Below are positions 2,586 to 8,047 of a stretch of 64,000 nucleotides of DNA, in pieces. Origin of the DNA: an uncultured bacterium (lineage in GTDB: Bacteria; Oederibacteriota; Oederibacteriia; Oederibacteriales; Oederibacteriaceae); assembly GCA_965112635.1 (NCBI GenBank), contig OZ218778.1, positions 1,152,001 to 1,216,000 on the forward strand. Direction: 5' to 3'. The notes below the pieces were generated by a model, which worked only from the letters and a program-made list of their open reading frames with translations, was not told where the DNA came from and searched no databases. Made by a program: the position numbers and the translations under genes. Every line of letters starts with the position of its first letter. The first letter of the stretch is position 1.

Positions 2586-2631
2586 AAAAATAAAACCCTT
2601 CTGGGGTCATTCCGGAAGGGTTTTTATTTTT
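2586..2631. terminator. Bidirectional intrinsic terminator between convergent genes
   Basis: AAAAATAAAACCCTTCTGG...CCGGAAGGGTTTTTATTTTT stem with A/T runs on both sides. Confidence 0.8.
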
Positions 2632-2661: not shown

Positions 2662-5600
2662 TCATTGTTTAGCAGCAGCCTCTTCGTGGTCCACTTCCCT
2701 CAAGGCCGGCCTGCCTAGCACTTTGCGCGTCCAGACGCGGAACCGGTCGACCCAGCTGAACATGGAGGGGATGACGATCAAGGTCAGGAGCGTGGAACTG
2801 ACCAGGCCCCCGATGACCGCAATACCCATGGACTGACGGAAGCGGCTGACCTCGGACAGGGCCATGGCCAGCGGGGTCATGCCGGCGATCAGGGCAAAAG
2901 TGGTCATAAGGATGGGGCGCAGACGGATCTTGCCGGCTTCAATGATGGCGTCATCCCTGGACCTTCCCCGGCGCATGAGCTGGTAGGTATAATCCACGAG
3001 CAGGATGGAGTTTTTCGCCACCAGGCCCATGAGCATAATCAGGGCGATCATGGACATGATGCTTAGAACCTGGCCGGTGAAAAGCAGGGCGCCGAAAGCA
3101 CCCAGCCCGGCCAGCGGTAGGGCGGTCATGATCAAGAGCGGCATGATGATAGATTCATACAGCGTGGCGAGGATTAAATACATAAAGATGAGGCCCAACA
3201 CCATGGCGATGACCATGTTGACGACCAGTTCCTGGAAGTCCTCGGCTTGCCCGATGAAGTCATACGTGATCCCGGCAGGGATCTTGCCTTCCTTTTCAAG
3301 CCCCTTCATGATCTTCCTGGCATCGTCCTCGATATTCCCCAGGGCCCCCAAACCGCCAAGCTGTCCGCCAACCTGGATGTAGCGGATCCGGTCGCGACGG
3401 TCGATCCGGGTGGGGCCCAGCGTGTTCTTGGGCGTGGCGACATTGGCCAGGCGCACCAGCTGATTGTTCATATTAGGGATGTAGTACGAACCGTAGGCCT
3501 GGGAGAGGTCGCGCTGGTCCTCCTGCAGGCGGACGCGGATATCATATTCCAGGCCGTTCTCCCTGAATTTGGCTGGCACGATGCCGTCCACCATGCCGCG
3601 GAGCTCAGAGCCAGCCATGACCGTGGAAACGCCCAAGCTTTTGATCCTGTCCGGCTCCATGATGATCTGGAATTCCGGCTTACCGGTCTTGTAACTGATG
3701 TCCAGGTCCTTCAGATCCCTGATGCTCTTAAAAGATTCTCCGGCCATTTTGGCGACCTGGTCCATTTTTTCCAGGTCATCCCCCATCACGATCATGGTAA
3801 AAGGAGGTCTGTTGTCACCGCCCATCTGCACATTGCCCACCTGGGGGCTGAAATTTGCGAAGACCTTGAACTCATCCCTGAGAACTTCCTGCATATGGGT
3901 CGTAGTCATTTTAGGACGGAGCCTGTAATTGGTCATCTCCACGAAAATGCTGGCCACATTGGTTTCTCCCTCATCGTTGCCCACCTGCAAGGCCACATTG
4001 AGGTTCTCCGGATGGGACCGGATGACTGATTCGACCTTCTTGGAAGTGGCCAGCATAGCTTCCAGGGAGGTGCCCGGAGGGCCCTCCAGGCTGATCAAAT
4101 AAAAACCCACGTCCGGTTGGGTCATAAAAGTGCGCGGGAGCAAAATGAAAAAGATGACACCAATTACAAGGAACACAACGGTGCTGAGGAGGACCACCCA
4201 GCGGTGACGCAGGCAAAAACGCATGACCCGTTCATAAAAATCAACGAGCCAGGTTTGAAAGTGGCCGAAATAATAGGCCAGGGTGTGCAATGGCCAGAAA
4301 ATATAATAGAAGGTCTTCTTGATGGCGTTCCAGACCACCCGCCCAAAGCCAGGGGTTGTATTGTCCTGCCCGGACAGTTTATCTTTTTCGGCGGAGCTGC
4401 TCCTGGCCAGGTAGGCGGACAACATGGGAGCCACGGTCATGGCGTCAAAGAGGGAGATGGCCATGGTGAATACCACGGTGAATCCCATCTGCTTGAAAAA
4501 CTGGCCGATGGTGCCGTGCAAAAAACCGATGGGCATAAAAACAGAGATGACGGTGAGCGTGGTGGCCACCACGGCCATAGTGACCTCGTTGGTCCCGTGG
4601 ATGGCCGCGTCCTTGGGTGATTCGCCGTGCTCCAGGTGCCTCCAGATATTTTCACGGACCACGATAGCGTCGTCAATGAGCAAACCCACGGCCAGGGACA
4701 GGGACATCAGGGTGATCATGTTGATGGTAAAGCCCATCATATACATCAGGATGAAGGAGCCGATCAGGCTGTCGGGCAGGGCCATGCCCGTGATGAAGGT
4801 GGAGCGGAAGTTGCCCAAAAAGAGGTAGACGACAAAGACCGTGAGCAAGATGCCCAGGAGAATGGTGTTGCGCATATCCTCGATATCTATCTTGATGAAC
4901 TTGGCGTTATCCAGGGTCGTATTGAGCTGGGGCTTGCCTTTGGCTGACGAGAATTTATTGTTTATCTCCCTTATTTTGTTCTGCACAGCGTCGGCCACCT
5001 GTACCGTGTTGCTTCCCGACTGGCGGTAGATGTCCATGAAAAGGGATTTCTCGCCGTTATAAAAAGCCAGGTTCTTGGTGTCCTCGACCGTATCTTCCAC
5101 CGAGCCCACGTCCTGGAGGGTGACCGGGATATCGGAGCCGTAAAAGTTCACGACGGTCTTCCTGATCTTGTCCAGAGCATCGTATTCCCCGAGGGTCCGG
5201 AACGCCGTGCGCTTGTCCTTCCTGGATATCTCGCCTACCGGGATGTTCTGGCTGTTGGCCGCCAGGCGGTCGCTCACCATGCTCACGGACAGCTCGTGGG
5301 ATTTGAGGCGGTCCTTGTCCAGGGACACCTTGATCTCACGGCGCGTACCGCCCAGTATCTGCACCAGCGCCACATTCGGAACCTGTTCCAGCAGGGGTTT
5401 GATGGTTTCGTGGGCCAGGTCGTAGATCTGGGCCGGGGTCAGGTCCGCGGACAGGGAGACGCGGACGATGGGCTGGTCCGCGGGGTCGAAACGGCGGATG
5501 ACGGGCTCGTCTATTTCATTGGGCATGTTGGGCCGGGCCAGGGTGACCTTCTCGCGGACCTGCTGCTCGGCGTCCTTGACGTCGGTGCCGAGATAAAATT

Positions 5601-5880
5601 CGGCGAGCACCATGGAATAGCCGTCATGGTTCTCGGAGGTCAGGTGCTTGAGACCCGAAATAGCGCTGATCTGCTCTTCCAGAGGCTTGGAGACCAGGGT
5701 CTCTATTTCATGGGGTCCGGCGCCGCGGTAGGTGGTGACTACCGAGATCATGGGAAAGGATACATCGGGGAATTGGTCCACGCCGATGCGGAAATAGCAC
5801 AGGCTTCCCACCACCAGGATCAAAGCCACAAAGCTCATAATCAGGGTGGGTCTTCTGACCGAAAGTGCTGCTAGGTTCAT
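2662..5880 (-). CDS. RND efflux transporter permease (AcrB/HAE1 family)
   Basis: 1072 aa; VRRP N-terminus, GLLIDDAIVVRENI, GLVAKNSILLVD and RLRPILMTT are RND signature motifs. Confidence 0.95.
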   Translation of the reverse strand: MNLAALSVRRPTLIMSFVALILVVGSLCYFRIGVDQFPDVSFPMISVVTTYRGAGPHEIETLVSKPLEEQISAISGLKHLTSENHDGYSMVLAEFYLGTDVKDAEQQVREKVTLARPNMPNEIDEPVIRRFDPADQPIVRVSLSADLTPAQIYDLAHETIKPLLEQVPNVALVQILGGTRREIKVSLDKDRLKSHELSVSMVSDRLAANSQNIPVGEISRKDKRTAFRTLGEYDALDKIRKTVVNFYGSDIPVTLQDVGSVEDTVEDTKNLAFYNGEKSLFMDIYRQSGSNTVQVADAVQNKIREINNKFSSAKGKPQLNTTLDNAKFIKIDIEDMRNTILLGILLTVFVVYLFLGNFRSTFITGMALPDSLIGSFILMYMMGFTINMITLMSLSLAVGLLIDDAIVVRENIWRHLEHGESPKDAAIHGTNEVTMAVVATTLTVISVFMPIGFLHGTIGQFFKQMGFTVVFTMAISLFDAMTVAPMLSAYLARSSSAEKDKLSGQDNTTPGFGRVVWNAIKKTFYYIFWPLHTLAYYFGHFQTWLVDFYERVMRFCLRHRWVVLLSTVVFLVIGVIFFILLPRTFMTQPDVGFYLISLEGPPGTSLEAMLATSKKVESVIRSHPENLNVALQVGNDEGETNVASIFVEMTNYRLRPKMTTTHMQEVLRDEFKVFANFSPQVGNVQMGGDNRPPFTMIVMGDDLEKMDQVAKMAGESFKSIRDLKDLDISYKTGKPEFQIIMEPDRIKSLGVSTVMAGSELRGMVDGIVPAKFRENGLEYDIRVRLQEDQRDLSQAYGSYYIPNMNNQLVRLANVATPKNTLGPTRIDRRDRIRYIQVGGQLGGLGALGNIEDDARKIMKGLEKEGKIPAGITYDFIGQAEDFQELVVNMVIAMVLGLIFMYLILATLYESIIMPLLIMTALPLAGLGAFGALLFTGQVLSIMSMIALIMLMGLVAKNSILLVDYTYQLMRRGRSRDDAIIEAGKIRLRPILMTTFALIAGMTPLAMALSEVSRFRQSMGIAVIGGLVSSTLLTLIVIPSMFSWVDRFRVWTRKVLGRPALREVDHEEAAAKQ

Positions 5881-5892
5881 TATTAACCTTTC

Positions 5893-7977
5893 CTAATTTG
5901 CGTTGTAAAGCTTGGCCTGGGCCAGGATGGACAGTTTTTCCACCCCCAGCCTCAGGGTGTTCAATTGGGCTTGGTCAAAGTCGTCCTCGAAAGATAACAA
6001 CTGGAATGTCGTGGTCCGGCCGTTGTTAAAGCGTTCCGTCTCGTTCTTCAGTTTTTCCTCCTGGAGGTCCTGGATCTCCTTAGCCAGGGACAGGCGGGTG
6101 TTCACGTCCTCCCAGCTTTTCAAAAGGTTCCGCCAGTCCTGGGATTCGTTGAGTTTGGCGCTGTCCAGGTTGCGCTGGGCGGCCGCGTAGTCCGAATCAT
6201 AGCCCTGCTGGATCTGGTTCAGGGTGAAAAAATCCAGGGGCGCAATAAAGGTCAGGCCCACCGTGTAGGTAGGCTGGCCACCGCTCAACGAGGTGTCGTA
6301 GGCGGCCAGGGCGCCGTAGTCGTGGCCGTTGTAAACCACGGTGCCGAAGGCGTTGAGGTCGGGCAGGGATTTGTAGAACGTCTCTGTGACCTCGTACCGG
6401 GCGCTTTGCATCATCAGGCCGGAGGCCTGGACGTCCAACCGGTCATTCTGTTTTTTGATCTCGGCGTTCTGGAAAGAGGGGTCGCTCAAACGGTGGTTCA
6501 GGTCCTCCAGGTTTTCCGGCACCTCGTCGCCGCTCCGGCCCCGGAAGGTGTTGAAATTGCGCTGCTGGGTGAGCAGGTCCTGCTGGGCCATTTTAAGGTT
6601 CAGCTCCTTGAGCTTGTAGGCCGCCTGCGTCTGATAAAGGTCGGAGCGGTCCGCCAGGTTGAGGTTGACGCGCCTTTGGCTCCATTCCAAAAGTTTGGCC
6701 GTGCGGGAAAGGGATTCCTGGTCGTAGGCCACCACGGCGCGGGCCAGGGAAAGCTGCCAGTAGGCCATTTCAGCCTGGGATTTCAAAGTTTCCGCCCGCA
6801 GGTGTTCGGCCTTTTCCGCTGCGTTGGCCTGGGCTTTGGTCTTGCTGACGGTGGACCCGGTCAGGCCGCACATGAAATCGCGGAGCAGGGACTGGGACAC
6901 CGTCAAACTGGGTGCCACGTCGTAGTACGGTATGGAGGGGACCAGGCTGTCCAAAAGGCTGGGTGGAAACCCCGGTATGCCGGTCAAGGAAGGGAACATG
7001 AGGTTCGTGTAGTTCAGCCCGTAGTTCAGAGAGATCGTGGTCCCGGTGAACCATTTTTTGGAAAGCCCCAAGTTCCAAGAATAGGCCTGTGTCTCGCTGG
7101 GGCTTAACAGGGAGGTGGGCTGCTTTTTGTCGTCCACCGCCGTATAGTTTGCGTTAAACAGAGGAGAAAATTCCATATCCACTTCCTTGGCTTTGAGGGT
7201 GTAGCCTTTTTGGGTCTGGCTGGAGGCCTGGAGGGCTGGATTGTTGTCCTGCACCTGGGATAAATAATCATCCACGTTAAGCACTGCCTGGGCGCCGGTC
7301 CACACGGGAGCGAACAAGAAGGAAAGACCCAAGAACAAAAGCGGCATGGCTTTTTTACCAGTCTTATAAAGTTTTTTCATGCCTTCCGCAAAGATGGTTG
7401 CGAGCGAATGGACATACTCTTTGTCCGAAAATTCTAGGGAGGGTCCTGTTTTCCACATTTTCTTTTCCGTGGCGTAGCGGATGAGCGAACCTATGAACTG
7501 GTGCAGGAACATGAACTGGGATTTTTTGCCAACTTTATTGTGCAGTAAACGGCCATGACAATGGTTGAAATCCATGTCGTGGGTCTGTTCTTTTGAAATG
7601 GTTAGAAAGATTTTACGCATGAAGGGGTCGGTATAGGCGTTCCTTAACATTAATTGCATAAATTCCTGGCTTTCCTTTTTCTCCATGTCGTTCAAAAAAC
7701 TCATGCCTATCTGGTTAAGCATCTCAAAGGGGCCTTTGGCGATGGGGAAAGCGTTGATCTGTGAATGGATGACCTTGATCCTCCAGCGGACCAGCTCGTG
7801 CAGGACCTGTTCTTTGCTTTTGAAATAGTGGTAGAGGCTGGCCTTTTGCATTTTACAGGCCTGCGCGATAGCGCTCATGCTGGTCTCGCCGTAGCCTTTG
7901 ACCGCGAAAAGGTGCATGGCGATCTTGAAGATACGCTCCCTTTGTTTGTTGTGTATCACTGGGTTAAGGGTTTTCAT
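5893..7977 (-). CDS. In-frame fusion: TetR/AcrR-family regulator (aa ~1-199), Sec signal peptide, TolC-family outer membrane efflux protein
   Basis: N-terminal HTH (AMHLFAVKGYGETSMSAIAQACKMQKASLYHYFKSKEQ); internal MKKLYKTGKKAMPLLFLGLSFLFAPVWTGAQA; outer-membrane-efflux motif ERFNNGRTTTFQLLSFEDD. Confidence 0.85.
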   Translation of the reverse strand: MKTLNPVIHNKQRERIFKIAMHLFAVKGYGETSMSAIAQACKMQKASLYHYFKSKEQVLHELVRWRIKVIHSQINAFPIAKGPFEMLNQIGMSFLNDMEKKESQEFMQLMLRNAYTDPFMRKIFLTISKEQTHDMDFNHCHGRLLHNKVGKKSQFMFLHQFIGSLIRYATEKKMWKTGPSLEFSDKEYVHSLATIFAEGMKKLYKTGKKAMPLLFLGLSFLFAPVWTGAQAVLNVDDYLSQVQDNNPALQASSQTQKGYTLKAKEVDMEFSPLFNANYTAVDDKKQPTSLLSPSETQAYSWNLGLSKKWFTGTTISLNYGLNYTNLMFPSLTGIPGFPPSLLDSLVPSIPYYDVAPSLTVSQSLLRDFMCGLTGSTVSKTKAQANAAEKAEHLRAETLKSQAEMAYWQLSLARAVVAYDQESLSRTAKLLEWSQRRVNLNLADRSDLYQTQAAYKLKELNLKMAQQDLLTQQRNFNTFRGRSGDEVPENLEDLNHRLSDPSFQNAEIKKQNDRLDVQASGLMMQSARYEVTETFYKSLPDLNAFGTVVYNGHDYGALAAYDTSLSGGQPTYTVGLTFIAPLDFFTLNQIQQGYDSDYAAAQRNLDSAKLNESQDWRNLLKSWEDVNTRLSLAKEIQDLQEEKLKNETERFNNGRTTTFQLLSFEDDFDQAQLNTLRLGVEKLSILAQAKLYNAN

Positions 7978-7982
7978 GGTCT

Positions 7983-8015
7983 AATTAACCTACCGCTTGG
8001 TAGGTTAATTGTCAA
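7983..8015 (-). promoter_or_regulatory. Sigma70-type promoter overlapped by a TetR-type operator palindrome
   Basis: Minus strand TTGACA-17 nt-TAGGTT, then 9 nt to the ATG; perfect 12-bp inverted repeat AATTAACCTACC-GCTT-GGTAGGTTAATT (7983-8010). Confidence 0.8.
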
Positions 8016-8033
8016 GGTTAGTGTTTCATTAAA

Positions 8034-8047
8034 CTACCGGGGGGTAG
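8034..8047. promoter_or_regulatory. Second operator-like site CTACC-N4-GGTAG
   Basis: Same core and spacing as the 7990-8003 operator core, 44 bp away. Confidence 0.5.

Follow-up and report, generated by a model that had tools for sequence, protein, structure and literature searches.

A TetR-type repressor joined in frame, through a predicted internal signal peptide, to a TolC-like channel in an uncultured bacterium of the Oederibacteriota

Textbooks describe the repressors of efflux operons as soluble proteins and channels of the TolC type as substrates of the Sec pathway. A single open reading frame (ORF) holding an internal signal peptide between two mature proteins is known from the FbcH cytochrome b-c1 precursor of Bradyrhizobium. 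Here we describe an ORF of 694 codons that joins a TetR-family repressor to a TolC-like channel, with a segment like a complete signal peptide between them. It lies in a stretch of 64,000 nucleotides (the window, whose own numbering is used below) from an uncultured bacterium of the Oederibacteriaceae: positions 1,152,001 to 1,216,000 of contig OZ218778.1, assembly GCA_965112635.1. One polypeptide for both products means that the two halves have to end up on opposite sides of the inner membrane and be separated by a cut. A literature search that included part of the review PMC8277102, supplements aside, returned no description of a regulator–TolC fusion.

The ORF starts with ATG, occupies 5893..7977 on the minus strand and is stop-free throughout in the ORF listing (Table 1). 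A frame of this length running from TetR into a TolC-like domain had been proposed in the original prediction, made from the letters of the window, and the ORF listing, the Pfam matches and the folds bear it out. The span given there, 5893..8047, does contain the ORF, but its upper end overshoots the start codon by 70 nt, into the promoter and operator region. The Pfam model TetR_N matches aa 17–62 with 56.3 bits (cut-off 24). The repeat typical of outer-membrane factors (OMFs) such as TolC, Pfam OEP, matches in two stretches with 80.6 bits (cut-off 22). In a sequence search of the PDB with the 694-residue protein, all 49 matches were of the TetR family and none was a TolC structure. No NCBIfam model reached its cut-off for the fused protein, the TolC model giving 56.5 bits against 225.

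An AlphaFold2 model of the fused protein, computed from a 78-row alignment, has a mean predicted local distance difference test score (pLDDT) of 91.5. Its TetR part consists of nine helices and has an all-helical core, and its TolC part scores 93–98 over most of its length. Foldseek matched the N-terminal part to FadR (3whc, 3whb) and MtrR (6of0, 8fw3), with TM-scores by target of 0.69–0.75 over 193–198 columns, and the C-terminal part to TolC, OprM, CusC, OprN, VceC, CmeC and MtrE, with E values of 3e-15 to 2e-12 and TM-scores by target of 0.60–0.73; for TolC, OprM, CusC and VceC the scores are 0.63–0.73 over about 470 columns. In this model, both folds are whole. The N-terminal TetR-type helix-turn-helix (HTH) and the all-helical regulatory and dimerisation core of about 190–220 residues, by which the TetR family is recognised, are present, as are the two OEP repeats and the alpha/beta-barrel protomer of the OMF family (Pfam, Foldseek). 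The protein departs from the TetR family in that it is not a free soluble cytoplasmic polypeptide, its frame continuing without a stop codon through the predicted signal peptide into TolC.

The junction reads as the original prediction quoted it, with Met200 encoded by the ATG at 7380–7378 and followed by a complete signal-like segment: a Lys-rich n-region, a hydrophobic h-region of 15–16 residues, AQA at aa 229–231 and then V232, the first residue of VLNVDD. The 15-residue Kyte-Doolittle maximum of the entire protein (2.06) falls here, at aa 211–225, and a second Met, M211, is encoded at 7347–7345. The segment has no lipobox Cys, and in an alignment it falls opposite the signal peptides at the N-termini of unfused TolC relatives. 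A GGAAGG word was also claimed before Met200. It is present at 7387–7382 and ends 1 nt before the ATG, a spacing that is poor and atypical for the window, where Shine-Dalgarno-like words start at −16 to −8 in 21 of the 31 ORFs of at least 300 aa. The word GCATGA is still present at the junction. With the ATG and the full n-region retained, the fusion in this genome looks young. To a genuine fusion, whose polyprotein would enter the membrane N-in and be split by signal peptidase I, giving TolC and a TetR with a membrane tail, we give about an even chance.

Homologues were sought among 5.8 billion proteins (E ≤ 0.001), and 34 were found. Six of them, the window protein and P0002–P0006, cover 100% of the query and carry both TetR_N and OEP, and the remaining 28 have TolC alone. 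P0002–P0006 are 680–690 aa long and are 41–43% identical to the window protein by BLASTP (42–44% in the alignment). In a search of 1.84 billion representatives, P0002 alone spans both halves among the best 150 matches, and P0040 proved to be a fusion of MarR with TolC. There is, then, a separate metagenomic clade with the TetR–TolC fusion, consisting of these five full proteins and one partial locus (L025), and the DNA confirms a single frame in L021 (which encodes P0005), in L022 (P0002) and in the partial L025. Other proteins with TetR_N plus outer-membrane-efflux domains, which the original prediction had named as support for a real architecture, therefore do exist, with the same fusion in independent metagenomic lineages.

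The closest unfused relatives suggest how such a frame could arise. The stop of tetR and the start of tolC share the letters GTGA in L023, L027 and L029 and ATGA in L026, and in L028 the two genes lie in different, overlapping frames; in a more distant genome of the same phylum (G037, locus L016) the genes come in the same order, 51 nt apart. With such overlaps, an indel of 1 or 2 nt would be enough to fuse the genes, and the ancestral state was probably a translationally coupled tetR–tolC pair. In the window, TetR runs straight into an intact ATG and the full signal peptide behind it, as a small indel in an overlap of this kind would give. The other fused clade has lost the n-region, and at the old start position it carries Met, Ile, Val or Leu. 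An in-frame ATG, GTG or TTG from which the signal peptide could start is absent from L021 and L025, so that in these two TolC would be made only through the fusion. The hydrophobicity maximum falls at the junction in all eight fused proteins examined (six with TetR, two with MarR, the latter described below). Shortly before the conserved mature start, an Ala-rich stretch of small residues is found in the six TetR fusions and in P0181, P0040 having Gly and Ser instead. Three long frames in genomes of the phylum, G023:C175 (713 aa), G003:C8 (736 aa) and G032:C90 (686 aa), were rejected as fusions, as they match OEP only; they are open frames of high-GC DNA or include unrelated upstream sequence. 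In one same-phylum relative (L014 in G032:C90, 983–1537), an ORF between the TetR and TolC genes resembles an ECF-type sigma factor, by eye only.

TolC trees were built from 41 rows and, on mature parts only, from 26 of those rows, the set used in the topology test; TetR trees were built from 27 and 25 rows. The long-branched L016 and L058 were excluded from both topology tests. Both trees group P0002–P0006 in a single clade, with unfused rows as its closest neighbours (P0007, L023/L026 and L028/P0009 in the TolC tree, L023/L026/L027 and L028/L029 in the TetR tree), and both place the window protein outside the whole group. The minimum number of state changes is two on either tree. Forcing all fused rows together costs 32.2 log-likelihood units on the TolC tree in a quick analysis (approximately unbiased test, p-AU 0.037) and 7.35 units on the TetR tree in a careful one (p-AU 0.054). 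Two independent origins of the TetR–TolC fusion are favoured by these trees but not proven.

Within the metagenomic clade, a comparison of L021 with L022 gave ratios of non-synonymous to synonymous substitutions (dN/dS) of 0.24 (TetR) and 0.20 (TolC) at a dS above 1.2; both halves have been under purifying selection since the fusion. A comparable arrangement is found with another family of regulators. MarR–signal–TolC proteins of 639 aa (P0040 and P0199) and of 650 aa (P0181, P0203 and P0205, sharing 70% identity with P0040) occur in several assemblies; some related partial records bear the label Candidatus Firestonebacteria. P0201 lacks the fusion and differs in its signal peptide, while its mature part is more than 90% identical to those of the MarR–TolC fusions, which suggests a recent gain or loss of the fusion among these close kin. 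The recurrence of the layout, twice with TetR and again with MarR in the Candidatus Firestonebacteria records, suggests that it is tolerated or favoured, not a one-off accident.

Several points weigh against a genuine, processed fusion at this locus. The junction is poorly modelled, aa 185–221 being drawn as one helix and pLDDT falling to about 50–67 at aa 201–230, and the signal peptide was judged by hydrophobicity, charge and the AxA pattern, a rule of thumb. The lineage is represented by one genome only. No fusion was found in the 40 same-phylum genomes searched, and a scan of species-representative genomes with the fused alignment returned no fused locus, its best hits being TetR-only, in Elusimicrobiota metagenome-assembled genome records. 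The original prediction had held that separate tetR and tolC genes in all close relatives would speak against a real fusion; this applies by half, the fusion being absent from these 40 genomes but present in independent metagenomic lineages. The support for independent origins is marginal, the first tree was seen before the tests were run, and the unfused state of P0007–P0016 rests on gene-call lengths alone. The genome holds five other OEP loci and two other RND genes, and with so many other OEP loci selection on the fused TolC copy could be weak. The retained ATG and full n-region mean that TolC could come from internal initiation, the fusion being a tolerated accident. Finally, positions 7237–7531, with both A6 runs of the junction, lie outside all contig pieces recovered from other runs.

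For this contig check, seven runs came up, four of which contain parts of the stretch; the lineage occurs in peat and sediment samples, and no RNA data set with the stretch was among the matches. Twelve contig pieces from the four runs cover 1869 of 2301 bases with 0 differences, and 10 of the 14 homopolymer runs of five or more between 5800 and 8100 are covered without gap or mismatch. The gap matters: one extra A at 7372–7377 (A7) would end TetR two codons later and leave Met211 as the TolC start. The fused ORF in this genome still hangs on this uncovered homopolymer, and a sequencing or assembly error that hides separate tetR and tolC genes, which the original prediction had listed with a lost stop codon as one of three options, has to be weighed. 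The assembly is a single closed contig of 2.88 Mb, by our own inference a type in which homopolymer indels can survive, and the relatives have separate genes. However, its completeness is 96.9%, the window has many long intact ORFs, and records from three sources, on 2 contigs, contain exactly this protein of 694 aa. Under the A7 reading, moreover, the Met211 start would have neither a charged n-region nor a Shine-Dalgarno word, whereas Arg or Lys is found at this place in those relatives whose start coincides with the hydrophobic core or shortly precedes it. Since comparable fusions demonstrably exist elsewhere, we regard an error as quite improbable.

A second possibility is that TolC is made mainly from an internal ATG, Met200 or Met211, the TetR read-through being a recent, tolerated by-product with a useless or mildly harmful tail. 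The window does keep an in-frame ATG with its Lys-rich n-region and complete signal peptide, as the original prediction's option of two overlapping starts would have it, and P0002/L022 keeps an ATG at the same place. The purine-rich GGAAGG precedes the ATG, and although its distance is unusual for the window, the unfused L023 and L029 have GAAGG-like words very near their starts, so that close spacing may work in this family. Against this, the stop-free frame carries every ribosome that translates TetR into TolC, the internal start is dispensable in the clade of L021 and L025, and the RNA structure at the junction is ordinary (z = +1.0). We consider mainly internal initiation unlikely, but it has to be kept in mind. 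Of the three options offered originally, the polyprotein is best supported, by the independent, selected clade and by the two loci without an internal start.

The A6 run after Met200 allows another route to a free repressor. A −1 shift there reads two codons and then TAA (window 7366–7380), and such a slip would yield TetR with no hydrophobic tail. A programmed frameshift resembling that of dnaX would then give soluble TetR, and unshifted ribosomes the TolC precursor; the purine-rich word lies just upstream, as would suit it. However, no frameshift hairpin and nothing else unusual was found in the RNA at the junction, where 173 of 200 shuffles fold at least as well. With a G before it, the run falls short of a complete X XXY YYZ heptamer. 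The junctions of L021 and L022 lack an A-run, so that it is not a feature of the architecture, and the Lys codons of an n-region produce A-runs by chance. A programmed frameshift is therefore very improbable.

The fusion may also be real and yet a recent damaging mutation, with the repressor, the channel or both disabled and survival resting on the other OMFs and pumps counted above. That the lineage is one genome with a young-looking junction would fit. But both domains are intact with high-confidence folds, neither the 694 codons nor the RND gene downstream is interrupted by stops or frameshifts, the palindrome in front of tetR is perfect (12+12), and the same layout is selectively maintained elsewhere, all of which makes damage a distinctly unlikely explanation.

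Table 1. Features of the tetR–tolC–RND locus, in window coordinates.
Feature	Position	Strand	Details
Terminator-like hairpin with T-run	2592..2624		15 pairs, readable on both strands, after the RND gene
RND permease gene	2662..5880	(-)	1072 aa; Pfam ACR_tran 811 bits
Mature TolC-like outer-membrane factor and stop codon	5893..7284	(-)	aa 232–694; Pfam OEP, Foldseek
Predicted internal signal peptide or signal anchor	7285..7380	(-)	aa 200–231; n-region 200–210, h-region 211–226, AQA at −3..−1
Second A6 run	7351–7356	(-)	Sequence reading
A6 run directly after the internal ATG	7372..7377	(-)	Three-frame reading
TetR repressor domain	7381..7977	(-)	aa 1–199; HTH aa 17–62; Pfam, PDB sequence matches, fold matches
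Operator-like perfect inverted repeat	7983..8010 (arms 7983–7994 / 7999–8010)		12-nt arms, 4-nt gap, ends 5 nt before the start codon
Putative promoter	7987..8015	(-)	TTGACA 8015–8010, 17-nt spacer, TAGGTT 7992–7987

In front of tetR, TTGACA abuts the inverted repeat and TAGGTT lies inside it. The promoter is our own reading of the sequence; a scan for consensus promoters did not call this site, because its second hexamer matches at only 3 of 6 positions. The operator motif is common to fused and unfused relatives (L021, L022 with 1 mismatch, L025, L027, L028 and L029), and TTGACA is kept in seven of the eight upstream regions of relatives compared, the exception being L028. Repressors of the TetR family bind palindromic operators, usually at their own promoters, and a palindrome that is perfect in the window and conserved in relatives argues that the fused TetR still binds DNA. 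The tetR ATG follows the putative −10 by about 9 nt, with no Shine-Dalgarno word (window 7975–8015), so that the mRNA would be nearly leaderless if the promoter is read correctly. Relatives have a longer leader and a second operator-like palindrome, with an ATG where the start codon of the window sits.

Downstream, the RND gene starts 12 nt after the stop of the fused ORF, with a well-spaced GGAAAGG 6 nt before its ATG; for its product, all NCBIfam multidrug RND models stay below their cut-offs. The hairpin after this gene is likely the end of the operon. Members of the OMF family act together with a pump in the inner membrane and a periplasmic adaptor (MFP). No gene for such an adaptor is present in the tetR–tolC–RND operon (window 2662–7977), and the three HlyD_D23 matches in the genome are all at other loci. 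The same adaptor-less gene order is seen in the relatives L016, L021 and L023, and a second TolC-then-RND pair in the genome (L184, G000:C1:1375000-1382500) also has no adaptor gene between its members. A 571-aa TolC open frame elsewhere in the genome was rejected as a second fusion, since it is an ordinary TolC whose frame merely overlaps the upstream gene. At another OEP locus (G000:C1:306820-308017) the matches are split over frames of 340 and 178 aa, and this may be a broken or frameshifted TolC gene.

If the fusion is genuine and processed, as in the reading given even chances above, the following course may be proposed, in which we infer that the protein inserts into the membrane and is cut there, what becomes of the tail, and that TetR binds DNA. 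The fusion would have arisen in frame from a translationally coupled tetR–tolC pair with overlapping stop and start. The TetR domain would fold in the cytoplasm, while the former TolC signal peptide (aa 200–231) would act as an internal signal anchor in the inner membrane, N-in/C-out, and the TolC part would be translocated by Sec. Signal peptidase I would cut after AQA (aa 231), sending mature TolC, with the N-terminus VLNVDD, to outer-membrane assembly and leaving a TetR of about 26 kDa that ends in a short membrane tail. Genes for two signal peptidases I and for BamA are present in the genome, as are genes for an M50 (RseP-like) and an S49 (SppA-like) protease. The tailed TetR would dimerise, bind the palindrome over its own promoter and repress the tetR–tolC–RND operon until released by a ligand, acting either at the membrane or after its tail has been clipped by a protease of the RseP or SppA type. 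Internal initiation at Met200 may add TolC. Whatever else happens, the lack of a stop codon would mean that all TetR is born as a fusion; repressor and channel would be made one-to-one, and every repressor molecule would start at the membrane.

A bolder and doubtful extension is that the repressor is itself the piece left in the inner membrane once the TolC signal has been cut, so that every exported channel would leave one tethered TetR behind. The activity of this TetR while tethered, or its release by an intramembrane or signal-peptide protease, would report the flux of channels through Sec. This would be an export-coupled, stoichiometric feedback on an efflux operon, at which evolution would have arrived on no fewer than three separate occasions (two with TetR, one or more with MarR-type regulators). 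If the halves are sorted and cut apart at all, a transcription factor of about 200 residues would serve as the leader of an exported protein, gene regulation would be tied to secretion in a new way at a fixed ratio of repressor to channel, and bacteria would provide a further example of polyprotein processing by signal peptidase. For annotation, genes of this kind are labelled only as TolC or are split by gene callers.

Compared with AcrR, MtrR and CmeR (and, by fold, FadR), the window TetR has the same N-terminal HTH, helical core of about 200 residues and palindrome over its own promoter, and its gene is likewise the first of an RND/TolC operon; unlike them, it is no free cytoplasmic protein, since a hydrophobic export signal and the body of TolC follow its C-terminus with no stop between. 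The channel half resembles TolC, OprM, CusC and VceC in its two OEP repeats, its full alpha-barrel plus beta-barrel fold and an AxA site before a conserved mature start, but its predicted signal peptide is internal, 199 residues from the N-terminus. FbcH is similar as one ORF with an internal signal peptide, presumed to be cut by signal peptidase; there, however, both products are envelope proteins of one complex, whereas here the N-terminal product is a transcription factor. The MarR–signal–TolC proteins (P0040, P0199, P0181, P0203, P0205) have repressor, export signal and TolC in the same order, and differ from the window protein in that its DNA-binding family is TetR and its probable origin a tetR/tolC stop/start overlap.

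For the fate of the tail, RseP offers a parallel: according to part of PMC8144685, it clears signal peptides and cleaves RseA and FecR. RseP-dependent release would be a route by which a membrane-held regulator or signal remnant could be set free, and an M50 gene is present here. In RseA and FecR, though, the released part controls a sigma factor and is itself no repressor; the link to the window protein is one of analogy. ToxR, CadC and TcpP share the topology predicted after cleavage, a cytoplasmic N-terminal DNA-binding domain with one membrane segment, and membrane-bound regulators of the CadC type do find their DNA target, as described in part of PMC6320335. The likeness is in topology only: those proteins have an OmpR-type winged helix and a retained periplasmic sensor, neither of which is found here, while the periplasmic part of the window protein is TolC, predicted to be cut off as a channel, with a signal-peptide remnant as the tail. 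By domain content and predicted fold, then, neither part departs from its family, TetR or TolC; their combination and the internal signal are what is unusual, and the interest lies chiefly in the independent recurrence of the layout and in a transcription factor placed as the leader of an exported protein.

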